64,000 nt of DNA from a virus (taxonomy: Duplodnaviria > Heunggongvirae > Uroviricota > Caudoviricetes). A program made the translations under genes and the position numbers. The stretch is from the IMG/VR virus record IMGVR_UViG_2698536484_000026; one strand, given 5' to 3'. Position 1 is the stretch's first letter. The number at the start of each line of letters is the position of its first letter. The notes under the pieces were generated by a model. It was not told where the DNA came from. It saw nothing but the letters and a program-made list of their open reading frames with translations, and did no database searches. Shown here one piece after another: positions 3,983-37,105 of this stretch.

Positions 3983-4527
3983 TTGCTACAGGGGTGGACA
4001 TCGAATCAACAGGTCTTGATTTCCTCTCAGGCCATAAAATCATTGAAATCGCAATGGTGAAGTACGAAATTGAGACACAGACAATGGTTGATAGTTTTGT
4101 AATGCGGTTCAACCCGCGTCGCAGTATCGATCCGAAAGCGCAAGCGGTACACGGCATCAGTCTTGAAGATTTAGCCGCCGAGCCGTTACTAGCCGATCAC
4201 GCTTCATCTGTCGCTTCGTATCTCTCTTCTTCCGATATTTGGATAGCCCACAACGGCGAAGCGTTCGATATTCCGTTTATTAGGCATGAGCTGAAAAGTT
4301 ACGGTTTTTCGCTTCCAGACATCCCATTGATTGACACTCTATTTTCCCTGTGGGCCACAGAAGACGGTAAACGTCCCCGCCTTGAAGAGTTGGCCTTCTC
4401 TCTTGGCTTTATATACGATCATGCCAAAGCACATAGTGCCTTATATGACACAAACTTAATGATGCAATGCTTCTTTAAGGCACGTAATAAGTACGGATTT
4501 TTTAAATTACCCTCTGAAATTGTGTAA
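3979..4527 (+). CDS. DnaQ-like 3'-5' exonuclease (DEDDh)
   Basis: Exo I DIESTGLD, Exo II IAHNGEAFDIPFI, Exo III HSALYDT. Confidence 0.7.
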   Translation: MIATGVDIESTGLDFLSGHKIIEIAMVKYEIETQTMVDSFVMRFNPRRSIDPKAQAVHGISLEDLAAEPLLADHASSVASYLSSSDIWIAHNGEAFDIPFIRHELKSYGFSLPDIPLIDTLFSLWATEDGKRPRLEELAFSLGFIYDHAKAHSALYDTNLMMQCFFKARNKYGFFKLPSEIV

Positions 4528-4533
4528 AACAAA

Positions 4534-4570
4534 AGCCTACTTTAAAAAGTTTAAAGTAGGCTTTCTTTTA
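4534..4570 (+). terminator. Rho-independent terminator-like hairpin
   Basis: agcctacttta/taaagtaggct stem followed by T-rich run. Confidence 0.5.
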
Positions 4571-4685
4571 AAGAACAGTCGCCTTTCAATCATTTCCTGC
4601 CTGTATTTAATACTTTTCCGCCTGATAGGTTTAGTCAAAATGTAGCCATCGAAACGCAAATGCAACTAAACAGAAGGAGACTTAC

Positions 4686-5495
4686 ATGAGTTCGGTTGAA
4701 AATGTAATGACAAATGATGATCTGGATGAGCTGACAGCCATGTTGCAATCACTTGATGAACCAGTAAAAAAAGCTGCACAGGTTGAAAATACTGATGATA
4801 TTGACGATCTGCTTCTCGGCCTCGATGCTGGCGTAGCCATGAGTTCTGATGATGTTGCCGAAGAACTGTTCAATGAAGAAAAAGCAGGTGATTTCAGCTC
4901 CGCTTTAAATGAGTTGGAGTTAGCTCATGAGCCTATAAACGTAATTAAGGCTGAAAGTGTTGAATCTGCCGAAAACGAGCCAGAACAATTGGGATTTATT
5001 GAGGTTGAAGAGTGTGTTGAGGTTAATGATGAATTAAAAGTTCAACAGTCAAATGATAGCAATACAAATAAAAAAGCTCGTACTGCAAGAGGTCCTCGTT
5101 TTACTTTAAGTGATAAAGATTATTTGTTTTTCAATAAAGCAGGCTTAGAAAAAGATATTTTCTTAGACGCTTACGAAAACGCGCCTGTCAAAGCAAAGGA
5201 TAAGATATTAAACCTTCTTAATTGGTTTAGCGGAGGTCCAGATATTAGTGTTTACACGGTAATTTCCATGAGACACCTTCTCACAGAAAAGAAGGCTACA
5301 AGTAATAGTATTAAGATTGCTTTAATGAGCAATCCAGAAAAACCGTATCCGCTTAACACTGCGTCAACTCAGGCTGGGCAAATGATGGCTGTATTTCCAG
5401 CTACAGGAATTGCTGTTAGAGACGGTGGAAATCTAACATTGAACGAAGAATCACCGATCGTTAAGAAGTTTGTCGCGGAGTACACTATTGGATGA
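4686..5495 (+). CDS. Hypothetical protein with highly acidic N-terminal half
   Basis: About 120 aa D/E-rich N-terminus, basic C-terminus; RBS GGAGA upstream. Confidence 0.45.
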   Translation: MSSVENVMTNDDLDELTAMLQSLDEPVKKAAQVENTDDIDDLLLGLDAGVAMSSDDVAEELFNEEKAGDFSSALNELELAHEPINVIKAESVESAENEPEQLGFIEVEECVEVNDELKVQQSNDSNTNKKARTARGPRFTLSDKDYLFFNKAGLEKDIFLDAYENAPVKAKDKILNLLNWFSGGPDISVYTVISMRHLLTEKKATSNSIKIALMSNPEKPYPLNTASTQAGQMMAVFPATGIAVRDGGNLTLNEESPIVKKFVAEYTIG

Positions 5496-18082: not shown

Positions 18083-18472
18083 ATGGGCTTCCCTTCTCCT
18101 GCGGCGGATTATGCTGAGAGCCGTATTTCTCTTGATCAGCAGATAATTAGACATCCTTCAGCGACCTACTTCATGAGGGCGGCTGATAGTCATCATCGTG
18201 AGGGAATATTGCAGGGTGCATTGCTGGTGGTCGATTCCTCACTGACTCCTGTTGATGGATCTCTTCTTGTATGTGCTCTGGATGGGGAATATCGCGTAAA
18301 AAGATACCGGAAGTATCCACGTCAGCATCTGGAGGATTTAAGAACTGGTAAGAAGGAAGCATTGCCAAAGGATGATGATGGATGCACGGGCAGCAATGCC
18401 GTGTTTGGTGTGATCACTCACATTATCAACGACGCAAGAAGTGGCGAGTTTGATGATTGTCCTGTGATGTAG
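18083..18472 (+). CDS. umuD: UmuD'-like S24 peptidase-fold protein, N-terminally truncated (P1 HumD-like); no umuC partner
   Basis: GFPSPAADY...HPSATYF...DS...VK aligns to UmuD from about residue 25 onward; in-frame stop 15 nt upstream fixes the start. Confidence 0.7.
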   Translation: MGFPSPAADYAESRISLDQQIIRHPSATYFMRAADSHHREGILQGALLVVDSSLTPVDGSLLVCALDGEYRVKRYRKYPRQHLEDLRTGKKEALPKDDDGCTGSNAVFGVITHIINDARSGEFDDCPVM

Positions 18473-18483
18473 GAGAACTGTTT

Positions 18484-18510
18484 AGGTGGTGCATTGCACC
18501 ACCTTTTTAT
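18484..18510 (+). terminator. Rho-independent terminator
   Basis: Perfect 9-bp stem aggtggtgc/gcaccacct followed by TTTTAT. Confidence 0.55.
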
Positions 18511-19610
18511 CACACTGCGCGGAATGCGATTTCGCCAGGTATTACTTCACCTTGCCAATACATTTGGGCAGCAACGCGATCTGCGAGGTCACGATAAATA
18601 GCCGTAAATTCGCTATCTGGACGACTAATAACGGTTGGTGTTCCGTTATCCAGATCTTCACGAAGAGAGATATGAAGTGGCATTTGGCCTAACAACTGCG
18701 TGTTGTATTTCTCGGCCAGTTTCTGTGCGCCACCGGTGCCAAAAATTGGCTCGTGATGACCGCAGTTACTGCAAATATGCACACTCATGTTTTCGACGAT
18801 ACCTAGTACCGGCACTTCGACTTTTTCGAACATCACAATGCCTTTCTTCGCATCGATCAGCGCGATGTCTTGCGGCGTAGTTACCACAACCGCACCAGTT
18901 ACAGGAATGTTCTGCGCCAGCGTCAATTGAATATCACCAGTGCCCGGCGGCATATCGAGAACGAGATAGTCCAGATCAGGCCACAGTGTTTCCTGCAACA
19001 TCTGCATCAACGCCTTGCTGGCCATCGGTCCACGCCACACCATTGCATTGTCGTCGGTGACCAGATAACCAATAGAGTTGGTTGCCAGGCCATGAGACAT
19101 GATAGGTGCCATGTGAGTACCGTCCGGTGAGGTTGGACGTTGGTTTTCCGCGCCCAGCATGGTTGGAATTGATGGACCATAGATATCGGCATCCAAAATA
19201 CCAACTTTCGCACCTTCAGCAGCCAAAGCCAGTGCCAAGTTTACTGCTGTGGACGATTTGCCTACACCGCCCTTGCCTGAGCTTACGGCGATAATATTCT
19301 TAACACCATTAATGCCTGGTTGGTTTTTGACGCGCTTAAGCGTGGCAATGTTGTACGACAGCTTCCAGTCAATAGCCTTTGCGCCAGTGATACGGAGCAG
19401 ATCACCACTACATTGCTCTTTCAGGTCTTCAAAAGGCTTATTCCACACGAAAGGCATGATTAGTTCGACATGCAGTGTGTCATCCATCAACGCAACATGG
19501 TGTAACGCTTTAAGCGTAGTCAGGTTGTGTTTCAGGGTTGGGTGCTGAAAATTAGCCAGCGTACCGGCTACCATTGCTCTCAGGGCATCCGGCGATTTGG
19601 ACTCGCTCAT
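18510..19610 (-). CDS. apbC: Iron-sulfur cluster carrier ATPase ApbC/Mrp
   Basis: Near full-length match to enterobacterial Mrp: AVSSGKGGVGKSSTAVNLALALA, MPPGTGD, C-terminal CSNCGH. Confidence 0.9.
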   Translation of the reverse strand: MSESKSPDALRAMVAGTLANFQHPTLKHNLTTLKALHHVALMDDTLHVELIMPFVWNKPFEDLKEQCSGDLLRITGAKAIDWKLSYNIATLKRVKNQPGINGVKNIIAVSSGKGGVGKSSTAVNLALALAAEGAKVGILDADIYGPSIPTMLGAENQRPTSPDGTHMAPIMSHGLATNSIGYLVTDDNAMVWRGPMASKALMQMLQETLWPDLDYLVLDMPPGTGDIQLTLAQNIPVTGAVVVTTPQDIALIDAKKGIVMFEKVEVPVLGIVENMSVHICSNCGHHEPIFGTGGAQKLAEKYNTQLLGQMPLHISLREDLDNGTPTVISRPDSEFTAIYRDLADRVAAQMYWQGEVIPGEIAFRAV

Positions 19611-19767
19611 CCCGTCTCCTTTATTTTAATTTGCGCAATTGTCGCCTTGTAGTGTACTCCAGCTGCGACATTTAATCATTTATGAGAAATGCTGTTATCA
19701 CATGGCAGACATAAGGCCATTTTGTTACTATCAAGCCCCTTTTCACTACAAAGAAGTAATGCCTACT

Positions 19768-21801
19768 ATGACCCAAGTCGCGAAGAAAATTCTGGTGACG
19801 TGCGCGCTGCCGTACGCTAACGGCTCAATCCACCTCGGCCATATGCTGGAGCACATCCAGGCTGATGTCTGGGTTCGTTACCAGCGAATGCGCGGCCACG
19901 AGGTTAATTTCATCTGTGCCGACGATGCCCACGGTACGCCGATCATGCTGAAAGCACAGCAACTTGGTATCACACCGGAGCAGATGATTGGCGAAATGAG
20001 TCAGGAACACCAGACTGATTTCGCAGGCTTTAACATCAGCTATGACAACTATCACTCGACGCACAGCGAAGAGAACCGTCAGTTGTCTGAGCTTATCTAT
20101 ACTCGCCTGAAAGAGAACGGTTTTATTAAAAATCGCACTATCTCTCAGTTGTACGACCCGGAAAAAGGCATGTTCCTGCCGGATCGTTTTGTGAAAGGCA
20201 CCTGCCCGAAATGTAAAGCGCCAGATCAATACGGCGATAACTGTGAAGTTTGCGGCGCGACCTACAGCCCGACTGAACTGATCGAGCCGAAATCGGTGGT
20301 TTCTGGTGCTACCCCGGTAATGCGTGATTCTGAACACTTCTTCTTTGATCTGCCCTCTTTCAGCGAAATGTTGCAGGCATGGACCCGCAGCGGTGCGTTG
20401 CAGGAGCAGGTGGCAAACAAAATGCAGGAGTGGTTTGAATCTGGTCTGCAACAGTGGGATATCTCCCGCGACGCACCTTACTTCGGTTTTGAAATTCCGA
20501 ACGCGCCGGGTAAATATTTCTACGTCTGGCTGGACGCACCGATTGGCTACATGGGTTCCTTCAAGAATCTGTGCGACAAGCGCGGCGACACTACCAGCTT
20601 CGATGAATACTGGAAGAAAGACTCCACCGCCGAGCTGTACCACTTCATCGGTAAAGATATCGTTTACTTCCACAGCCTGTTCTGGCCTGCCATGCTGGAA
20701 GGCAGCAACTTCCGCAAGCCGACCAACCTGTTTGTTCACGGCTATGTGACGGTGAACGGCGCGAAGATGTCCAAGTCTCGCGGCACCTTTATTAAAGCCA
20801 GCACCTGGTTGAATCATTTTGACGCTGACAGCCTGCGTTACTACTACACTGCGAAACTCTCTTCGCGCATTGATGATATCGATCTCAACCTGGAGGATTT
20901 CGTTCAGCGTGTGAATGCCGATATCGTGAACAAAGTGGTTAACCTGGCGTCCCGTAACGCTGGCTTTATCAATAAGCGTTTTGACGGTGTGCTGGCAAGC
21001 GAGCTGGCTGACCCGCAGTTGTACAAAACCTTCACTGATGCCGCTGAAGTGATTGGTGAAGCGTGGGAAAGCCGCGAATTTGGTAAAGCTATCCGTGAAA
21101 TCATGGCACTGGCTGACCTGGCTAACCGCTATGTCGACGAGCAGGCTCCTTGGGTAGTCGCAAAACAGGAAGGTCGCGATGCTGACCTGCAGGCGATTTG
21201 CTCAATGGGCATCAACCTGTTCCGCGTGCTGATGACTTACCTGAAACCGGTACTGCCGAAACTGACAGAACGTGCGGAAGCATTCCTGAATACGGAACTG
21301 ACCTGGGATGGCATCCAGCAACCGCTGCTGGGCCATAAAGTGAATCCGTTCAAAGCACTGTATAACCGTATCGACATGAAACAGGTGGAAGCACTGGTGG
21401 AAGCGTCTAAAGAAGAAGTGAAAGCTACTGCCGCGCCAGTTACTGGCCCGCTGGCAGACGACCCGATTCAGGAAACCATCACCTTTGACGACTTTGCCAA
21501 AGTTGACCTGCGCGTGGCACTGATCGAAAACGCAGAGTTTGTTGAAGGTTCTGACAAACTGCTGCGCCTGACGCTGGATCTCGGCGGTGAAAAACGCAAT
21601 GTCTTCTCAGGCATCCGTTCTGCTTATCCAGACCCACAGGCACTGATTGGTCGTCACACCATTATGGTGGCTAACCTGGCTCCGCGTAAGATGCGCTTCG
21701 GCATCTCCGAAGGTATGGTGATGGCTGCTGGCCCCGGCGGGAAAGATATCTTCCTGTTAAGCCCGGATGCTGGTGCTAAACCTGGCCACCAGGTTAAGTA
21801 A
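19768..21801 (+). CDS. metG: Methionine--tRNA ligase
   Basis: [26 protein letters not shown] (HIGH), KMSKS, CPKC...C zinc knuckles, C-terminal tRNA-binding domain; 677 aa from ATG 19768. Confidence 0.95.
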
Positions 21802-21850: not shown

Positions 21851-21962
21851 ATAGACACAATCCCTCCTGATTTACACAAGCCCTAAAACAATTTGTTTTC
21901 TACCTTTTGTTGATTGAGATAATAAGCCGCATAAGAAAACAAATTGTTTCGGAGTGGTTGAA

Positions 21963-22262
21963 ATGTTGAACATTACCCAAGCCTACCAGGTGGCATTGAT
22001 CAGTTCATCTCATACATCAGAGGAAGATGCTCGCCGATTCATGATCGCAAGCAATGAGCTGGATTGGGTTTCACAAATTGATGGCGGTTGTATTGTCCAC
22101 GCCGGGTTACAGGATGATGTCTGGAAAGACGACTTGCGTCGATATGGTATATCCGAAGGCGCGATTGCTAACATTCAGAAAGTACTTGATGTAGGCTTTG
22201 ACTCTGTACATTTTGATTGTGGTGCGCCGATCGTTGAAGGGCTTGAGTGCTGGTGTTGGTAG
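21963..22262 (+). CDS. Hypothetical protein
   Basis: Preceded by conserved promoter-like element and AAGAAAACAAATTGTTT motif. Confidence 0.4.
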   Translation: MLNITQAYQVALISSSHTSEEDARRFMIASNELDWVSQIDGGCIVHAGLQDDVWKDDLRRYGISEGAIANIQKVLDVGFDSVHFDCGAPIVEGLECWCW

Positions 22263-22393
22263 AGTGTATAAGCGGATCAATGAGTTACGGAAACAGTTAA
22301 TAATGAGGAGCTTGTAATAAGCTGTATACCCTAGAAAAGCTAGACTAGGGAATAAAATGACGTGAAACTGGGCGAGACAGTAAATAATTCCGA

Positions 22394-23623
22394 ATGATAA
22401 TTGAACAAATAACCCCTTGCTCGGAGCTTGGAATGACTGATACCGCTTTTTCAAAATCGTTACAAAAAGAAGTCGATCCTGAGCAGTACTTGGCGCTAAA
22501 GAATTTAGATGACAGCTCGGTTCATGCTATTGCCCGTGACGATATCATCTGCCCCATTTGCAAAGTTGGAGGTGGTTCGTTCGTTAGAGCCACAAGGAAT
22601 GGTGGCTATCACAAGAAGGCGCATTTCAGATTTACCGGTGAAGATGGTCAAGGCCATCATCCATCATGTGATTTCTATGGAGATAGACTAACATCTGAGG
22701 TGAAGCAGCACCTTGTCTCATTCACAAAAGATCGAACAAAGTATTCGCAGGTAATACGAAAGCTGGTCTGTGCCGGCATACAGGAAGGGATATTTACTCA
22801 AGAAAAAATGTGGCAGATGAGGGAATGGTTCTTCAATAAGCGAAAGGATTCCACATTTGAAATATGGTTAGAAAGCGAGCATTTAGACTGGCTTTATTAT
22901 ATTAGTGGGTTACGTGATGCATATCTAGCATGGACAACTCCTGATATTCTACCTTTCGCGCCCATTCAGGTTACTGTGCCTGGTTTTTCTTGGAAGCGTG
23001 CGATTGACAAAGAGGTGCTAAGAGTTCACATCAAGACTCTCCAGCAATTGCGTGAAATTTCAGTCTCACATAGAGACATTGCTGTAATCTTAGAACACAT
23101 AAACAATAATCGTGACCGCACAATTCTCGATCCATCGCATTTGGAGGACGAGATAAGTAAGACCTATAAGCTTACTAGTTTTGTGATGGGCAATTACATT
23201 GAGTTTCAGACAAAAACGGTTAGCGACAGAGCATACGGGGAAGCTAAGTTTCTGGCATTTGCAGCACTTTTGTTGTTCGTGTCAGATTGGGACCTCAACA
23301 TTGCTATTGGTAAGTTTTCTAAGATTGCCAGAGTGAAGGAGGTTGATGACATGCTGGCTGGTAATTTCATTGGTCTTAATCCTTACTTCCGATACGACCT
23401 GGCTAATGCAGTGAAGAGATTGCAGGATAACTGGCCGATTGAATACCAAGAGTTGGAGCATTGGAATGTTGAGAAATCCATGCGTGACGCATATGAAAAG
23501 TGGCGTGCGACAGAGCCTGAATTCGCTCCACCCCTATTGCCAGACTTGTATATTGCCAAACATGAGAAAGAAGTCGCACAAGACGAGCAAGTCAGGCAGT
23601 GGATTAAGAACGGGGATGTTTGA
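22394..23623 (+). CDS. Hypothetical 409-aa protein with CPICK...HHPSC zinc-ribbon-like motif
   Basis: Long ORF with AT-rich upstream region; no recognised family. Confidence 0.45.
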   Translation: MIIEQITPCSELGMTDTAFSKSLQKEVDPEQYLALKNLDDSSVHAIARDDIICPICKVGGGSFVRATRNGGYHKKAHFRFTGEDGQGHHPSCDFYGDRLTSEVKQHLVSFTKDRTKYSQVIRKLVCAGIQEGIFTQEKMWQMREWFFNKRKDSTFEIWLESEHLDWLYYISGLRDAYLAWTTPDILPFAPIQVTVPGFSWKRAIDKEVLRVHIKTLQQLREISVSHRDIAVILEHINNNRDRTILDPSHLEDEISKTYKLTSFVMGNYIEFQTKTVSDRAYGEAKFLAFAALLLFVSDWDLNIAIGKFSKIARVKEVDDMLAGNFIGLNPYFRYDLANAVKRLQDNWPIEYQELEHWNVEKSMRDAYEKWRATEPEFAPPLLPDLYIAKHEKEVAQDEQVRQWIKNGDV

Positions 23624-24689
23624 GTGTAATTAGCTTAATCAATCAGTTGATAATGGCGGTCACAATTTGATTCTTTTCTATAAGAATCCGTTGATCGCCA
23701 CTACTCTTCTTCCATACCTGCAATCACACCTTTAAATATCAATAGGTTAGCGTTGTTTATACCAATAAGAAAACAACTAAATAACAGATCAACGAAACGT
23801 CAACGCTTTCACCCGATTTGGTCTAAAAAATTGACGTTTTCACACATCACTGCTTATACCCGTAACTCTACGCAGCAGACAGCGCCACAGAGTCCAATTT
23901 TCACCACAGACGACTCAACACACTACCAACAAAAACACACGCTCAAAATCGCTCCCGCTGCGTTACACAACCATATAAACAACATATTTTCAGGTATAAC
24001 AAAACAACTAAATAACACATATGCCATTCCCCAAAACAACCAACCTCTTTATGGCAGGCTACCGAAAAGACCCACCTCTTCTCCCCAGGCTACTGGACAA
24101 CCAACCTAACTTTCACAGGCAATCCGAAAACATTCATACGCGCGATACCCACGACACGCCATTCCCCAAACAGCGAAGAAACACCAGAATCACTGAAACC
24201 CCAACGAAGCCTGTAACCGCAAGGATTCTCTCAATCCCAAAAGACTCGAAGCATAACAATCACGGGAAACGCCATTACCCAATACACGAATAACTACAAA
24301 AGCCTTTCACACACTCCAGACAAACAACTCAAACACAATAACGAAAGGAATCGCCCACCTGCCATTACTCCATACACGGAGAAGAACAATCACCAAAACG
24401 ACGAGAACACCCCATAGAAGAACCACCGCAAAACGAACGAAACCACATACACCGACAGAGAAAACAACACACCCAATTCACCAACAGAAATAGTCGCCGT
24501 ATAGAACATTCTGGAAGGAGTGAGCATTAACGCCTATAGAGAGGTTGAGACAGATAAAACACAACATGTATAGCGAAGAAGCCAGGTATGTATAAGTGGG
24601 GAGGGAAGGAGGGGTGTCGCCTCCTTTTTCGTATTTATTCAACTCCTGATTTTATCCCCCCGTAACACCCCTACGGTCAGCCTTCGGTC

Positions 24690-24835
24690 CATACAGGGAA
24701 AAGGCTGCATCCCGCTACAGAAACGGCTGGGTTGCCTTCGGGGAACGGCTGGAGGTTTTCAGGGAAACGGTCGAGTTGCCTGTGTGGATTTCGGGAAAAG
24801 GCTCGATGCCGGTTCAGGAACGGTGGCGTACCGGT
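24690..24835. repeat. Iteron-like direct repeat array A (GGGAAACGGCTG-type units)
   Basis: Six degenerate copies of GG(G)AA(A)(A/C)GG(C/T)NG at about 24696, 24720, 24741, 24761, 24792, 24816. Confidence 0.45.
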
Positions 24836-32565: not shown

Positions 32566-34125
32566 CTAATCTCGTTTCAGAACTCCAAAATCGAATGCGC
32601 CATCAATAGGCAATACACCTTCCGCAAAGCCAGGTGTGGTGTCGATGATGTGTTTTCGCTCATAAGAGTGAGACAACAGGTATTTGTTGCTAATGTCAAT
32701 GAAATCAGTGATAAAACACACGTTTGCCTGATTCTTCTTGGCTCGTAAGCCACGACCGACACGTTGTCTCATTTCAACTTCTGCTTTCCCACCACCAGCA
32801 AGAATGACCGCACCAACGCTTGGCACATCAACACCGACATCCAGAATAGTCGAGCCTATTAAAACATCTATTTCGCCAGACGCTAAACTGTTCAGCTTTG
32901 CTTGTCTTGTCGCCTGGTTCGATTCCCCATAGATAAAGTCAACTCTAAGGCCTGACTCCTTCATCATCTCCATCAGGATTTGCCCGTGGCGTTTAAGACG
33001 AACTAGAGTCATACAATTGAGAGAATGTTGCTTATAGAGCAATGCCTCGCGCACTATGGCCTCGTTACGTCCCAAATTATACACGATCCCCAACTGATAA
33101 GCCTTTTGGTAGGCGGTGCTCATACCAACTCTAAAATTGAGGTGTTTGTTGGCAAGTTCGGCCTTGATTCTGGCCTCGTCTGGCTTGTAGGCAACTTTAT
33201 GATAAAGGAAGTACGGCTTTGCCAGAATGCCTCGATCAATCAGGTACTTTTCTGTGACTTTAATTTCAATTCGCCCGGCCACCGCCATCAGACGCATGTT
33301 GGCTTCCGTCGAATCCTTCATGAACGGCGTGGCCGTAAGCGCCAGACGATAGTCTGCGTTCACACATAATCTGGCAATGTCATAGAAATTAGAACCTGAA
33401 GACTCATGCGCCTCTTCCAGAATAAGCAGAGACACACTTGAAAGGAAGCGTTTCACCAAGTCCCGACGTTTGAGGTGGTAGCTCTTCTTATCTGGAGTTG
33501 CATCGCGTGGTGGTTCTTCAAGGAAACTTGCCAGAGTTTGAACTGTAGCGACGTTGATATGTCGTGATACCTGGAACTCACCCGAGCCAATGACTCCAAC
33601 CTTTTGGTCTTTTAACCACGGTTCGCCATTTTTGGCGCGGTAGTCGATGGATCTCTGGAAGTTTTCGGCCATTTGAAACATCAGAACAGAGCGGGTTGTT
33701 AAAAATAATGTCATTCGACCGATACGTGCAGCTGCTTTACAGGCAACGTTAGATTTCCCGCCACCAGTAGCGATTTGCGCAATCATCATTCCCTCTCGAA
33801 CTAGTGTTTCCACAGTCTGATCCTGATACGCATAATCAGGATTGTATGGGAATGGGTTAACCGCCGGATTTGGTTTACCAAGCGCCGGGGCTTTGTCTTT
33901 GCGGATATGAACACATCTGATGCCCGCCTTGTTCAAGTTCGCCGCTACAGGCTTGGCAAAGCCAGCAGGGAACGAGTTTTTACTCCAGTTGAACATCGTG
34001 CTTGTGCCCTTCCAGTCGCCAGTCTCGACTTCGTAGCTCAACATTTGCTGCACCAGTTGCTTTACCTTGTCATCTGCGCCAGAAATAAGCGCATTTACTG
34101 CGTTAGATACAATCCGAACAGTCAT
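32566..34125 (-). CDS. Superfamily 2 DEAD/DEAH-box type helicase
   Basis: Walker A ATGGGKS, LILEEAH, LALTATP, RVGRGLR helicase motifs. Confidence 0.7.
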   Translation of the reverse strand: MTVRIVSNAVNALISGADDKVKQLVQQMLSYEVETGDWKGTSTMFNWSKNSFPAGFAKPVAANLNKAGIRCVHIRKDKAPALGKPNPAVNPFPYNPDYAYQDQTVETLVREGMMIAQIATGGGKSNVACKAAARIGRMTLFLTTRSVLMFQMAENFQRSIDYRAKNGEPWLKDQKVGVIGSGEFQVSRHINVATVQTLASFLEEPPRDATPDKKSYHLKRRDLVKRFLSSVSLLILEEAHESSGSNFYDIARLCVNADYRLALTATPFMKDSTEANMRLMAVAGRIEIKVTEKYLIDRGILAKPYFLYHKVAYKPDEARIKAELANKHLNFRVGMSTAYQKAYQLGIVYNLGRNEAIVREALLYKQHSLNCMTLVRLKRHGQILMEMMKESGLRVDFIYGESNQATRQAKLNSLASGEIDVLIGSTILDVGVDVPSVGAVILAGGGKAEVEMRQRVGRGLRAKKNQANVCFITDFIDISNKYLLSHSYERKHIIDTTPGFAEGVLPIDGAFDFGVLKRD

Positions 34126-34189
34126 AAACCTCTTTCCTTAGTGCCTTTTGTATGTTATTTGGCTATTATAATAAGTAAGTGATTACTTA

Positions 34190-34888
34190 GTGGATTGTAG
34201 CAATAAAATGGATGTAAAAATCACGATTTTGCAGGTTGATGTTGCCAACCTTCGCCCGAATACCTGGAACACCAATTCGGTTGGTGCGCAGAATTTTGAA
34301 AAACTGAAAGGTTCTATCGAAAAATTGGGCTTTTTTAAGCCAATTTTGGCTCGTGAACTTGAAGATGGATTTTTTGAAATCCTCGGCGGCGAACATCGCT
34401 GGCGTGCCGCTATTGAGCAAGGAATTTCAACGGTTCCGGTGCTTTCTGTGGGCAAAATTAGCGATGTCGTAGCTAAACAGATGTCACTGGTGGACAACGA
34501 GCGATACGGTGAAGACGACCAAATCGCATTGCAACGCTTCATTGAAGAAATTCAGTCAGAACTTGACTATCAACTGTCTGAAATCGCCCCGTATGACGAC
34601 GAAATCTCGATGGTTTTAGCAAAAGAGGCGGCAATCGACCTTGAAGCACTGGAGGCGTTGTCTCGTGGTAGTGATGAGCCTGTCGATACCGACAAACGAG
34701 AGAAAACCGAACGTGTGGGTGCGGAACATCAGACCATGCGCTTCAAAGTAACTTTCGATGCGTCAGATCGTGTTGCAGAAACCATAAAAAACATCATCAA
34801 AGAGCAGGCTATTAACACCGGTAATGAAATGGAGAACGCTGGTGAGGCTCTGGTGTGGCTGGTCGACTACTACAAGGAGCGTATGTAA
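34190..34888 (+). CDS. ParB N-terminal domain (ParB/Srx fold) protein
   Basis: FEILGGEHRWRAAIEQGISTVPVL. Confidence 0.6.
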   Translation: MDCSNKMDVKITILQVDVANLRPNTWNTNSVGAQNFEKLKGSIEKLGFFKPILARELEDGFFEILGGEHRWRAAIEQGISTVPVLSVGKISDVVAKQMSLVDNERYGEDDQIALQRFIEEIQSELDYQLSEIAPYDDEISMVLAKEAAIDLEALEALSRGSDEPVDTDKREKTERVGAEHQTMRFKVTFDASDRVAETIKNIIKEQAINTGNEMENAGEALVWLVDYYKERM

Positions 34889-35556
34889 TGACCAAAAAGT
34901 TTGAAATCGTATATCGCGACCCGGCAGATCTTATTCCCTATGAGATGAATGCCAAAAAGCATGATGAACAGCAGATCCGAGATCTGGCCGCAGCCATTAA
35001 AAAGCGCGGATTTGACCAGCCAATTACGGTCGATAAGAACGACGTAATTATTACTGGCCACGGCCGCCGTGAGGCTGCAATTTTTGCTGGACTTGAGCGC
35101 GTACCGGTTATTGTTCGCGATGATCTCAGTGATGACGAGGTTCGTGCGAAGCGCCTTGAAGATAACCGACTTGCCAGCATTGATTACGATGCAATTAAGC
35201 TACAGAAAGAGCTTGAGTCGCTTGTTCTGGACGATATCGAGGTTTTCGGCTTTGAAGAGCGTGAGTTGAATGTTCTCGTTGGCAGTATGACAGAAGAAAT
35301 GGACACCGACTCGCTAGTTATCGATCTTGGCGAAGAAACTAAACGACAGAAGGATGAACACACCGAGATCAGTCGTGAAGTTGCAGCGGAAGAAGTACGT
35401 GTTGTCGACGTATTGGGCTTTAAAACGCTCCCTGCTGGCTCTGCCATTGTTGTTGGTGATTTGCTTGCCCACATGGAAGAAATGACGGGAGAAAGCGGGG
35501 TAGACGCATTTGTGGCATATGCGGAGAAGATCTCTTCTGGGGAGATGGCTGCATGA
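34888..35556 (+). CDS. ParB N-terminal domain protein (second tandem copy)
   Basis: ITGHGRREAAIFAGLERVPVIV; ATG overlaps previous stop. Confidence 0.6.
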   Translation: MTKKFEIVYRDPADLIPYEMNAKKHDEQQIRDLAAAIKKRGFDQPITVDKNDVIITGHGRREAAIFAGLERVPVIVRDDLSDDEVRAKRLEDNRLASIDYDAIKLQKELESLVLDDIEVFGFEERELNVLVGSMTEEMDTDSLVIDLGEETKRQKDEHTEISREVAAEEVRVVDVLGFKTLPAGSAIVVGDLLAHMEEMTGESGVDAFVAYAEKISSGEMAA

Positions 35557-36218
35557 GCAAATACATCATCAACGTATCGTTTCAGACACGCGTAAATAAA
35601 ACCACGCGCACGTTGGAAATCGCTGAGTCGTTCGGGCTTGGCCTGGACGAAAAAGAGTGGACGCTTTACGACAATCTGGAGCTGGAAGTGAAGCAGGGCG
35701 ATGTGGTGTATATCACCGGCCAATCCGGTTCCGGCAAATCCGTTGTGCTGCGCGAGTTGCAACGACAGATGAAGGATGAAGGGCTGTCTGTAGCCTCCAT
35801 CGATGATTTTACCTTCGATAATGAGGTTAACGTCATCGATCAGTTGGGCAAAACGACCAGCGATGCGCTTGGGTTGTTATCTATGGCTGGTCTGAACGAT
35901 GCATATCTGTTTGTTCGCAAGCCTTCTGAAATGTCAGACGGTCAGAAATATCGTCTCAAGATTGCCAAACTGATTGAGTCAGGCGCTAAAGTGTGGGCTG
36001 CTGACGAGTTCGGTGCTGTTCTAGACCGTGTAACCGCTCAGGTTGTGGCATCTAACCTCCAGCGTGCCGCTCGAAAGGTTGGTGCGACGGTAATGGTGGC
36101 GACGACTCACGAAGACCTGAAGAACGCGCTGCGCCCGGATATGCAGATCACCAAGCACTACAAAGAACGCGTGAAGGTGGAATATCACAATGGTAGTCAT
36201 GATGAGGTCCATTCATGA
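35553..36218 (+). CDS. ABC-type ATPase domain protein
   Basis: Walker A GQSGSGKS, signature-like SDGQKYRLKIA, Walker B AADEF, H-loop TTHED. Confidence 0.55.
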   Translation: MSKYIINVSFQTRVNKTTRTLEIAESFGLGLDEKEWTLYDNLELEVKQGDVVYITGQSGSGKSVVLRELQRQMKDEGLSVASIDDFTFDNEVNVIDQLGKTTSDALGLLSMAGLNDAYLFVRKPSEMSDGQKYRLKIAKLIESGAKVWAADEFGAVLDRVTAQVVASNLQRAARKVGATVMVATTHEDLKNALRPDMQITKHYKERVKVEYHNGSHDEVHS

Positions 36219-37105
36219 CGGACATCATCATCAAACGCTACCGCCCTGAAGAGTTTCCGCGTCATCTGGACTTTCTGGAGCGAATGACTGTCACAAAGGG
36301 AACTGTAGAGGACTGGCACGCTCTTAAGTCGCTTCACTACAAAACAGACGGCAAACCTTTCGCGCCAACATACTATCGCTGCGAACTGGATGACCGTCTG
36401 GTGGGCGTCGTGGTTATGGCTTACCCGAAACTACTGTTGGCACCTCGCCACCGCATGTTTCCTAAGTTGAAACCAACCACTAATACCACCGTGGCTAACC
36501 AGTACTGGGGTCGGTACGTGAATAACAACTTTGCGGTGATCAGTCGCTCAGTTGTGGATACTCAGTATCGTGGCGTAGGCGTCTCTTATCGAATGATTAA
36601 CCTGGTTAGCAGGATGCATGACCGGCCAATCATTGAGATCCAGTCCTCGATGAGCAAATACAATCCCTTCGCCATGAAAGCAGGGTTTAAGTTCATCCGC
36701 CCTGAGCGACCGAAGAGCTATGAAAGTGCACTGCGTGTGTTCCAGCGCCATTTCCGCTCCGACCCGGGTGATAACGAGGCGATCGTCAAAGAGTTGTTCG
36801 CTATGAGCGAGTCTCGTCGTCGCCGTGCGCTGCGCGATTTGGTGGCGGACTACCATAAGAACAGTTCCCTGGCAAAAGCTGGGCGGAATCGTGGCACGAC
36901 GATTCAGGACATTGCCGACAGTCTGGTGGACGAGGCCAGCATTGTGAAGCTGCTCAAGGACATTCACAACCTGAGCTTTACGTCTCCGTTGTATGGTGTG
37001 TACCGAAACCCTGACTTTGGCCGTCGACTGCCTGACACGCTGCCACTGCTGGCATTCGACAAACAACCTTTGGATAAACCGTTAGAAATTGCTTTACCGG
37101 CATAA
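36215..37105 (+). CDS. Hypothetical protein, possible GNAT-like acetyltransferase fold
   Basis: QYRGVGVSYRMI weakly resembles GNAT motif A; coupled to ATPase gene. Confidence 0.4.
   Translation: MTDIIIKRYRPEEFPRHLDFLERMTVTKGTVEDWHALKSLHYKTDGKPFAPTYYRCELDDRLVGVVVMAYPKLLLAPRHRMFPKLKPTTNTTVANQYWGRYVNNNFAVISRSVVDTQYRGVGVSYRMINLVSRMHDRPIIEIQSSMSKYNPFAMKAGFKFIRPERPKSYESALRVFQRHFRSDPGDNEAIVKELFAMSESRRRRALRDLVADYHKNSSLAKAGRNRGTTIQDIADSLVDEASIVKLLKDIHNLSFTSPLYGVYRNPDFGRRLPDTLPLLAFDKQPLDKPLEIALPA

Follow-up and report, generated by a model that had tools for sequence, protein, structure and literature searches.

The gene at 22433-23623 of the window, by which we mean the whole 64,000-nucleotide stretch of viral DNA analysed here, is a good candidate for a new immunity gene. 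The reading we prefer, at a probability of about 0.45, is that it is a stand-alone immunity or exclusion gene borne by a mobile element and that it may cooperate with Gabija. That the gene is real, that it forms a cassette, which of its residues are invariant, that its family is closed and what surrounds it are shown here; we infer the defence role, the division of the protein into sensor and effector, and the cooperation with Gabija; the role in phage resistance or toxicity for which the initial annotation of this region had proposed assays gains circumstantial support from the genomic context. The gene and its surroundings comprise the following features.

21954-22262 (+): backbone gene of 102 aa, DUF5983 C-terminal-like, phrog_5003, outside the cassette; present in relatives without the gene at 22433-23623
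22262-23646 (+): exchangeable accessory cassette of ~1.38 kb, consisting of its own upstream region and a single gene; delimited by breaks in homology to relatives
22263-22432 (+): cassette-specific 5' region, GC 0.39; putative regulatory role
22290 and 22374 (+): direct repeat GA(A/G)ACAGT(T/A)AATAAT in the 5' region, from the sequence
22325-22334/22345-22354 (+): 10-nt inverted repeat in the 5' region, also from the sequence
22374-22401 (+): sigma-70 promoter-like site GAGACA-16-GATAAT, a consensus match only (9 of 12)
22423-22426 (+): Shine-Dalgarno GGAG, read from the sequence, six nt 5' of the ATG at 22433
22433-23623 (+): coding sequence, 396 aa, 46 kDa, pI 6.1; PHROG 12525; dN/dS 0.06-0.11

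The initial annotation described a protein of 409 aa, and an open reading frame of 409 codons, ATG to stop, does exist at 22394-23623 (+); the CPICK and HHPSC strings reported for it are both present exactly. The size does not stand, however, as translation almost certainly begins at the second ATG, at 22433, for a product of 396 aa. We place the start there because of the GGAG at 22423-22426, the promoter-like site lying over the first ATG, the start of the PHROG profile and of all homologues at the Met of 22433, and the PGAP annotation of 396 aa in a 99%-identical plasmid. The 396-aa product is identical to the uncharacterised UniProt entry A0A0V9R6S9. Comparison with orthologs from Kluyvera (dN/dS 0.108) and Pectobacterium (dN/dS 0.057) indicates strong purifying selection. 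This is a real, strongly conserved gene. That it might be a chance reading frame or a decaying remnant, for which absent annotation is the sole argument, is already refuted by the conservation data: the dN/dS of 0.06-0.11, 216 homologue clusters of uniform length, a confident AlphaFold model (pLDDT 87.8) and invariant metal-ligand residues all speak against it.

The gene was said to stand alone between a host-type block and a region of small genes, and both descriptions hold. A gap of 170 bp divides it from its upstream neighbour, the next convincing gene is ~1.5 kb away, and the cassette boundaries enclose only this gene and its own upstream region. A host-derived apbC-metG block, ~90% identical to the E. 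coli chromosome, lies upstream and small genes lie downstream. Homology to Cyrano and PhiR41_1 ends at 22261 and restarts at 23636 (PhiR41_1) or 23647 (Cyrano). PhiR41_1 has an empty site, with 12 nt between the homologous flanks, and the slot in Cyrano holds a different cassette of 785 nt. No junction repeats were found at the cassette boundaries. The gene occupies the slot in only 34 of the 276 related plasmids that match the query region, with DUF1380 among the alternative occupants; it is present in 36 of 5,426 complete E. coli genomes, and the adjacent apbC-metG backbone block occurs at 705 plasmid places. The insertion slot is a swap hotspot, and the cassette is a 'moron' of an SSU5-like phage-plasmid. 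Searching the window with phmmer and four GajA/GajB seeds revealed no GajA or GajB. Just downstream of the cassette, the window also contains a repeat-rich, gene-free region rich in A and C. We considered this region as a source of a partner RNA and rejected the idea: it has no Rfam match and no significant folding, and it belongs to the backbone, not to the cassette.

The upstream region had been described as AT-rich. Its GC content of 0.38-0.39 is indeed below the window mean of 0.465, but the difference is modest (9th percentile of windows of the same size) and ordinary, being typical of promoter-bearing intergenic DNA. The promoter-like site at 22374-22401 overlaps the first in-frame ATG (22394), and sigma-70-like matches of this quality are not enriched over shuffled sequence. 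A link to the SOS response and umuDC was considered because umuD-umuC precede the P. viridiflava homologue and an S24 peptidase gene lies 4 kb upstream of the gene in the window. We dropped it: the S24 peptidase gene is part of the backbone of cassette-less relatives, and the upstream sequence contains no LexA-box consensus, as judged by eye.

Searches for relatives place the protein in PHROG 12525, a family with no assigned function, over its full length (E=6.8e-210; residues 14-408 of the 409-codon frame against 1-396 of 399 profile positions). The family includes SSU5 gp107 (AFL47034.1), the SSU5 ortholog being 57% identical; in contrast to a phage family, it reaches beyond phages into chromosomal islands and conjugative plasmids. 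The earlier statement that the protein has no recognisable family is therefore correct insofar as Pfam, NCBIfam and PADLOC give no functionally named family, and incorrect insofar as PHROG 12525 matches and homologues occur in many bacterial phyla. No Pfam-A model scored above its cut-off (the best, DUF4638, reached 13 bits against a cut-off of 27), NCBIfam gave no match, and no component model of PADLOC-DB v2.0.0 matched; a PADLOC SP_VI match (E=0.007 over 30 residues) was set aside as noise. Relatives in the PDB were found neither by sequence nor by profile. A Pfam scan of 82 diverse members returned only sub-threshold matches to zinc-ribbon models, and no helix-turn-helix or other DNA-binding domain was detected with Pfam in the protein or in these members. 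An exhaustive profile search uncovered no fusions and no remote relatives with extra domains, and a literature search on accessions of family members found nothing. The profile and structure searches that had been proposed as a check thus yield PHROG 12525 only, with no function from Pfam, NCBIfam, PADLOC, PDB or BFVD. Strong homology to a housekeeping phage protein, the objection foreseen in the initial annotation, is likewise absent: PHROGs, Pfam, PDB sequences, PDB folds and BFVD contain no structural, replication, lysis or packaging protein homologous to it.

Within the protein, two modules can be distinguished.

22433-22732 (+): N-terminal beta-rich predicted metal-binding module, residues 1-100 (AlphaFold models, alignments)
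22469-22471 (+): codon of E13, the sole invariant residue that is not a candidate metal ligand (alignment)
22550-22561 (+): C40-P-I-C43, first candidate metal knuckle, both Cys invariant (alignment)
22655-22669 (+): H75-H-P-S-C79, second candidate metal knuckle, H75 and C79 invariant (alignment)
22733-23620 (+): C-terminal all-alpha domain, residues 101-396 (AlphaFold, alignments)
23219-23281 (+): conserved hydrophobic helix LLAFxALLLFxSxW in the C-terminal domain (alignment)
23360-23386 (+): conserved GNxIGLNPF in the C-terminal domain (alignment)

Among 82 diverse homologues, aligned down to 17% identity, only E13, C40, C43, H75 and C79 are invariant, a pattern that fits a Cys2-His-Cys metal site plus one glutamate. 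The zinc-ribbon assignment made earlier is borne out in that the two Cys/His knuckles are conserved across the 82 sequences and the weak Pfam matches of the family are solely to zinc-ribbon models (InsA, PaaD, NrdR and eIF-5, all sub-threshold). The protein carries a candidate zinc site. As in zinc ribbons and other small Cys/His zinc modules, the CPxC and HxxxC knuckles flank beta-strands; unlike them, the 31-residue spacing and the conserved hairpin-helix unit that precedes it match no specific ribbon family. The models predict a beta-hairpin with T4, S7 and E13, followed by a pair of helices and, between the CPxC and HxxxC knuckles, by a ribbon of four strands. Three other readings of the conserved residues were rejected: a Ser-His-Asp triad, because H64 is not conserved in the family; a cytidine-deaminase-like site, because the motif order is reversed relative to deaminases; and a UBZ4-like module, because spacing and secondary structure differ.

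The C-terminal domain also contains the conserved motifs LVCxGI and MRxWFF, and apart from R130 it has no conserved residues of catalytic type. The protein is soluble, and no convincing transmembrane segment was found with 19-residue Kyte-Doolittle windows, the best of which scores 1.73 and holds two Asp. Two AlphaFold models were obtained (pLDDT 88 and 77). Foldseek comparison of the full model with PDB and BFVD gave best E values of 0.35 and 0.11, with TM ~0.1, and the N-terminal domain alone retrieved assorted zinc modules from the PDB (best E=3.5). As modelled, the all-alpha domain of ~300 aa resembles no known fold in the libraries searched. Low-probability helical matches (colicin A, BAR domains, alpha-pore-forming toxins) were not accepted as evidence.

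The family comprises 216 clusters, all ~360-400 aa long and free of domain fusions, and spans Proteobacteria, Cyanobacteria and Bacteroidota. Its members, accessory genes in every case, are found singly in phage-plasmids, prophages, IncX plasmids and integrase-bearing islands. Only 4 of 50,697 phage records carry it, all of them temperate phage-plasmids and none of them virulent phages, and 34 loci were found among 2.9 million viral contigs. This rarity in phages fits defence cargo better than a typical phage counter-defence gene. Elements of the pHCM2 type carry an 88% homologue, and a 2025 survey scored them as having no known defence or anti-defence system; from this we conclude that the gene has not been classified; we do not conclude that it defends. 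In Klebsiella, an SSU5-like plasmid reduces both plasmid uptake and phage burst, an effect of the whole plasmid that has not been ascribed to this gene (PMC8969562).

Examination of gene neighbourhoods, with genes called in the fetched loci by a crude longest-ORF method, revealed Gabija (GajA and/or GajB) within five genes in 20 of 55 loci, a raw count over loci that are not phylogenetically independent. In the family tree, the Gabija-linked loci are spread over at least six lineages, and they involve two Gabija subtypes, long in Alphaproteobacteria and short in Pseudomonas and Shewanella. The gene occurs in three orientations relative to Gabija, the convergent one included, and when it directly adjoins Gabija, 23-214 bp lie between them; gajA and gajB themselves overlap. 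Gabija is absent from the other 35 loci, so that co-occurrence and operon coupling with gajAB are not obligatory, and it is absent at all 34 viral-contig loci. No neighbour family other than Gabija recurs across lineages. Gabija aside, just one neighbour recurs, and only within a single alphaproteobacterial clade; the genes directly upstream in Xanthomonas, Patiriisocius, Sphingobium, Bradyrhizobium and the window are mutually unrelated. For these reasons we rejected the idea of a two-gene system.

Other neighbours are varied. The Klebsiella copy lies in the replication-to-Q region of a lambdoid prophage, adjoining a Panacea-domain gene and a pyocin S/immunity pair, and the slot beside the IncX copies is occupied on one plasmid by AbiD (PADLOC 5e-35), on another by a NACHT gene. 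In integrase-bearing islands the neighbours include Shedu SduA_C, RT+SLATT, DUF4145, SIR2/SMC-like and HD-CE/HATPase genes. Housekeeping genes adjoin at some loci (MetH, AcrB, and ychF in Pectobacterium). Overall, in genomes unrelated to one another as well as on mobile elements, members recurrently lie next to known defence genes. The adjacency to Gabija could result from shared insertion hotspots instead of function.

Under the immunity reading, the element would express the protein from its own promoter, so that the lysogen, and hence the element, is protected against other phages or incoming DNA. The zinc module, with its conserved polar patch (T4, S7, E13, D15, Q18, D37), may recognise either some feature of nucleic acid or a trigger made by the phage. 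The helical domain, having no conserved catalytic residues, would then act non-catalytically: it might oligomerise, bind a target or a partner protein, or insert its conserved hydrophobic helix. This mechanism is a guess, because neither a catalytic motif nor a structural neighbour was found. In chromosomal islands, the repeated placement beside Gabija as a separate transcription unit suggests that the two cooperate, as tmn does with Gabija. A wider claim is possible, although we hold it more tentatively: that the protein founds an unrecognised single-gene antiviral family with a new fold, made of a Cys2-His-Cys sensor and a non-enzymatic helical effector, which would act solo in phage-plasmids, prophages and plasmids and cooperate with Gabija in chromosomal islands across classes.

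The specificity of the Gabija link, given that no other defence system recurs beside the gene across lineages, would also suit a protein that disables some immune system of the host, most obviously Gabija. The chromosomal copies would then be a brake on, or regulator of, gajAB, and mobile elements would have picked up solo copies as a means of disarming the Gabija of new hosts. Solo copies do sit on mobile elements that must establish in new hosts, the cassette lies among small early-type accessory genes in a slot that can instead hold DUF1380, and Gabija itself has been reported from the leading regions of plasmids, where anti-defence genes abound. We nevertheless consider counter-defence, although a live rival, unlikely, because the family is nearly absent from phages and entirely absent from virulent ones, two-thirds of chromosomal copies have no Gabija nearby, and the anti-defence screens of the SSU5 survey did not flag it. 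Most known anti-defence proteins are small, fast-evolving and restricted to phages, unlike a protein of ~400 aa conserved across phyla in chromosomal islands. Same-strand direct adjacency with gaps of 71-214 bp, seen in several lineages and with both Gabija subtypes, could alternatively mark a sensor or adaptor that works only with GajAB, in which case solo copies would need a host Gabija or be functionless passengers. Such an obligate accessory is quite improbable: most copies are solo yet under strong purifying selection, the architecture is uniform with no fusion to Gabija domains, orientation varies and can be convergent, and translational coupling to gajAB is never seen, in contrast to the overlapping gajA and gajB. 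Moreover, Gabija works, and has been published, as a two-gene system.

Distinctly unlikely, too, is a role in housekeeping or regulation of the mobile element outside immunity: the protein might, for example, be a DNA-binding regulator of the zinc-ribbon kind, or help the element to establish, recombine or be maintained. Many regulators that bind DNA or RNA contain zinc ribbons, weak matches to the InsA and NrdR ribbons were seen, copies are often near integrases, and in the window the repeat-rich, gene-free region lies directly downstream. Against this, that region is backbone outside the cassette, and no helix-turn-helix or other DNA-binding domain was detected. The gene is also dispensable: among close relatives of this phage-plasmid are some without it and some whose site is empty. 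The elements carrying it are of unrelated types that differ in their replication and integration modules.

Clinical E. coli, Shigella, Salmonella Typhi, Klebsiella and Enterobacter commonly carry phage-plasmids of the SSU5/pHCM2 type, whose accessory genes are largely unannotated. If the gene confers immunity, it would add a family missed by current detection tools and account in part for the exclusion phenotype that has been reported in plasmids of this kind. After tmn, it would be the second single-gene module to team with Gabija, and would bear on how defence systems are combined. As the fold matches nothing solved, its structure and mechanism would then be new information. If the protein instead brakes or inhibits Gabija, it would represent a chromosomally rooted anti-defence family, which is unusual.

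The gene can be compared with several known systems. With Gabija itself (GajA, an ATPase-TOPRIM nuclease, and GajB, a UvrD-like helicase) it shares a neighbourhood in 20 of the 55 loci, but it is homologous to neither component, having no PADLOC or Pfam match. The anti-Gabija proteins Gad1 and Gad2, reportedly described by Yirmiya et al. and by Antine et al., both in 2024, are phage-borne, as the present protein is, and have a biology tied to Gabija, as it may have. Gad2 is described as a nucleotidyltransferase-like enzyme of a size similar to the 396-aa protein. As judged from these descriptions, the two differ from our family, in which no nucleotidyltransferase-like domain was detected and which is mostly chromosomal, whereas the Gad proteins are phage genes. 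The PDB fold library presumably includes any deposited Gad1-GajAB complex structures, and the full-model Foldseek search of the PDB returned nothing at E<0.35. In type II Gabija, GajA is replaced by 'GajC', a split nuclease of the MazF type (PMC13069673). It too is a non-canonical gene tied to a Gabija component; we rejected an identification with it, as fold and genomic arrangement are unrelated. A parallel in organisation is offered by tmn, a KAP-NTPase defence protein encoded by one gene, which co-localises with Gabija and acts in synergy with it (Wu et al., bioRxiv 10.1101/2022.08.21.504612). The 396-aa protein has neither the KAP P-loop NTPase nor clear transmembrane helices, has no Pfam match of any kind and bears no sequence relationship to tmn. 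Like tmn, however, it is encoded by a single gene on mobile elements, also occurs without Gabija, and repeatedly adjoins gajAB as a separate unit.

The protein whose CPICK and HHPSC motifs drew attention in the initial annotation belongs to a family that is still unclassified and for which the libraries searched hold no detectable structural neighbour. Both motifs (...IICPICKVGG... and ...GQGHHPSCDF...) are read in a 409-aa ATG-to-stop ORF of the window's ORF listing (22394..23623, +). Of the limits first given, the stop at 23623 holds, but translation very probably starts at the second in-frame ATG (22433), which yields a 396-aa product. Several lines argue for this start: GGAG lies six nucleotides 5' of that ATG, a promoter-like site (22374-22401) overlaps the first one, the match to PHROG 12525 begins at residue 14 of the 409-aa ORF, residue 1 is profile position 1 in nearly all homologs, and a 99%-identical plasmid has 396 aa in its PGAP annotation. 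UniProt lists exactly this 396-aa sequence as A0A0V9R6S9 ('uncharacterized'), and it occurs on 558 contigs. The upstream region had been called AT-rich; its GC content (0.38-0.39 over 131-170 nt) is below the window mean of 0.465, but at the 9th percentile it is unremarkable. Apart from the start codon and this point, the initial description stands.

In line with the initial annotation, the protein fits no functionally named family: Pfam, NCBIfam and PADLOC gave no significant match, and PDB sequences returned nothing by phmmer or by profile. The AlphaFold2 model, a confident one (41-sequence alignment; pLDDT 87.8, pTM 0.80), places an N-terminal beta-rich module of ~100 residues before an all-alpha domain. 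Foldseek found no neighbour for the full-length model in PDB (best E=0.35, TM about 0.1) or BFVD (best E=0.11), nor for an N-domain model (pLDDT 76.7) in PDB (E>=3.5, assorted zinc modules). Across 82 representatives, down to 17% identity, the sole invariant residues are E13, C40, C43, H75 and C79; conservation reaches at least 90% at T4, S7, Q18, D37, F65, F67, R130, W132, W286, N311, G314 and P317. We read C40, C43, H75 and C79 as a predicted structural Cys2-His-Cys metal site, and scattered sub-threshold matches to zinc-ribbon Pfam models agree with this. Conserved positions in the C-terminal domain are mainly hydrophobic or structural (LLAFxALLLFxSxW, GNxIGLNPF), which would speak against a conventional enzymatic active site in that domain.

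The element in the window is an SSU5-like phage-plasmid, closest among phage records to Escherichia phages Cyrano, PhiR41_1 and CMS-2020a; near-identical plasmids of ~110 kb exist. Two backbone features lie 5' of the gene, the second being the 'host-type block' of the initial annotation:

18083-18472 (+): S24-family (UmuD/LexA-like) peptidase gene standing alone, no umuC adjoining it, kept in Cyrano and PhiR41_1
18510-21801: divergent apbC (mrp)-metG pair, in the gene order of the E. coli chromosome and with ~90% identity to that locus

The apbC-metG block is found at 705 plasmid places in complete E. coli genomes, and a second methionyl-tRNA synthetase is therefore a stable backbone trait of the lineage. 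Homology to Cyrano and PhiR41_1 ends at 22261, the stop codon of an upstream DUF5983-like gene, and restarts at 23636 or 23647, 13-24 nt past the gene's stop; no repeats are visible at these junctions. In PhiR41_1 merely 12 nt separate the homologous flanks, and in Cyrano the slot holds another cassette of 785 nt that codes for a 244-aa coiled-coil protein (CYRAN_102, 4509-5243 of the Cyrano locus). Among related PLSDB plasmids, 276 match the query region, and in 34 of these the gene fills the slot; in the others the inserts come in at least five other lengths, among them a DUF1380 gene and an IS2. It is carried by 36 of 5,426 complete E. coli genomes, every copy being on a ~107-114 kb plasmid at >=99% identity. 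The feature is thus a single-gene cassette of 1.38 kb that includes its own 5' region and sits in an exchange hotspot. Alternative occupants include the coiled-coil and DUF1380 proteins, and the hotspot also has inserts of about five further lengths. The Cyrano proteins and PhiR41_1 ORF that were scanned had no PADLOC match, and the whole hotspot may repay mining.

Downstream, outside the cassette, the backbone is A/C-rich and repeat-bearing:

23750-24500 (+): ~750 nt, strongly A/C-rich and G-poor, without a convincing ORF (Cyrano and PhiR41_1 annotators call low-complexity ORFs here), with several degenerate direct-repeat families
24603-24629: terminator-like hairpin GGGAAGGAGGGGTGTCGCCTCCTTTTT, 3' of the A/C-rich region
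24696-24823: three copies of GGGAAAAGGCT...GAAACGG, spaced 44-53 bp, after the hairpin

The A/C-rich region has no Rfam match, and its RNA folding is not significant (z=+1.4). The repeats may form a protein-binding array (an origin, partition or incompatibility region). Farther on, at 32566-37105, a DEAD/DEAH-box helicase gene (-) adjoins (+) genes for two ParB-N-terminal-domain proteins, an ABC-ATPase-domain protein and a 296-aa unknown, going by how a 99%-identical plasmid is annotated; the group could be a partition module or something else.

A word-indexed search found 86 relatives, and an exhaustive profile search of 1.84 billion representatives found 216 clusters. Full-length members are all about 360-400 aa with a single architecture, and none of the 216 clusters shows fusion to another domain. 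Enterobacterales members are on phage-plasmids of E. coli, Salmonella Typhi (pHCM2, 88% identical), Klebsiella, Enterobacter and Cronobacter (267 PLSDB plasmids); others occur in Alpha-, Beta- and Gammaproteobacteria, Cyanobacteria and one flavobacterium. In viruses the family is rare: 4 of the 50,697 phage records have it, each of them a temperate phage-plasmid, and 2.9 million viral contigs yield 34 loci. The gene is not a housekeeping gene, and it is always accessory in the settings examined, which besides Gabija include the following (L numbers denote loci fetched around homologs):

Klebsiella lambdoid prophage: in the stretch from the replication genes to the Q antiterminator, near a Panacea-domain gene and a pyocin S/immunity pair
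Pectobacterium chromosome: solo insertion after ychF
IncX-type plasmids: slot beside the homolog with an AbiD or NACHT gene
L071 8287-8772 (-), Salmonella Dublin: AbiD-like gene in the IncX slot
L072 8460-10363 (-), E. coli plasmid: NACHT-domain gene and 213-aa unknown in the IncX slot
Integrase-bearing islands of distant bacteria: near Shedu (SduA_C), RT+SLATT_5, DUF4145, RadC, SIR2/SMC-like and HD-CE/HATPase genes
L010 6189-6959, L024 9167-9940, L028 9164-9937 (also L029, L032, L038, L042): ~257-aa unannotated gene directly upstream of the homolog

The IncX-type plasmids are otherwise syntenic (dqlB, homolog, slot, H-NS, Hha, TopB), and the slot is a small plasmid defence hotspot. In the Klebsiella prophage, whose homolog is a 49% one, a pyocin S/cytotoxic-domain bacteriocin gene, a cloacin-type immunity gene and a tailspike-like gene (L077 12823-16082) sit within the early-to-late accessory region. 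The ~257-aa gene is limited to one alphaproteobacterial clade, where it always takes this position, often preceded by integrase and YhcG/DUF1016 nuclease genes; it might act as a clade-specific partner, or the arrangement may simply be inherited synteny.

Gabija is the outstanding recurrent neighbour. When 139 flanking ORFs were tallied over 26 non-redundant loci, GajA and UvrD-type GajB came out on top, and no other neighbour family recurs across lineages. Mapped locus by locus, Gabija lies within five genes of the homolog at 20 of 55 loci. Where both share a strand, Gabija is either downstream of the homolog at 74-142 bp or upstream of it at 71-214 bp; where they converge, the gap is 23-36 bp or holds one to four genes. 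Two subtypes are involved: long GajA/GajB in Alphaproteobacteria, and short in Pseudomonas antarctica and Shewanella (PADLOC E: GajA 2e-209, GajB 9e-132). A neighbour-joining tree spreads the Gabija loci over six or more separate lineages, mixed with Gabija-free loci. Six loci have the homolog directly beside a complete Gabija (L031 10001-13946, from P. antarctica; L053 10001-13869; L027 10001-15240; L034 10001-15055; L041 5726-11137; L010 7001-12449), covering both subtypes and three orientations. Somewhere between a tenth and a sixth of genomes carry Gabija, and on a rough estimate a gene confined to defence islands would by chance have it a few genes away in only ~1% of cases. Against that rough figure the observed third is a large excess, read from loci that are not fully independent and from crude gene calls. 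The genomic association is specific and previously unreported.

The reading we favour, at a probability of about 0.45, is a stand-alone, element-borne immunity or exclusion gene. The zinc module would serve for recognition and the helical domain, itself not an enzyme, as effector or for interaction, and cooperation with Gabija may occur in chromosomal islands. Alternatively, mobile elements could have picked up a counter-defence protein or a brake on Gabija. We regard this as unlikely, and less favoured than defence, given that the family is nearly absent from phages other than temperate phage-plasmids, that the protein is large and deeply conserved, and that chromosomal islands are the family's main home.

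An obligate Gabija accessory would also be found beside gajA and gajB. These two genes overlap each other but never run into the gene studied here, which is therefore a separate unit; Gabija was not found in the window or at any of the 34 viral-contig loci, and we give this explanation the least weight among those that assign the gene a specific role. Plain housekeeping genes are among the homologs' neighbours too. A non-immune function for the element, such as a regulator, is improbable, if slightly less so than an obligate accessory. Strong purifying selection acts on the gene (dN/dS 0.108 against the Kluyvera ortholog, 0.057 against the Pectobacterium ortholog), and the chance that it is not functional is negligible. 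Something else altogether takes up the remaining probability. Its place in an unclassified family with a specific Gabija association makes the gene a reasonable candidate for experimental testing.

A literature search by family-member accessions found no citing paper. A 2025 survey of SSU5-group phage-plasmids lists pHCM2-like elements as without a known defence or anti-defence system; these elements carry the 88% homolog, and the gene is thus unclassified by current tools. A Klebsiella SSU5-like plasmid lowers plasmid uptake and phage burst, with no gene implicated (PMC8969562). 'GajC' (PMC13069673), considered as a counterpart, was rejected as an unrelated MazF-like protein. A precedent for a solo gene partnering with Gabija is tmn, a single-gene system that co-localises with Gabija and synergises with it via the ATPase domain of GajA (Wu et al., bioRxiv 10.1101/2022.08.21.504612).
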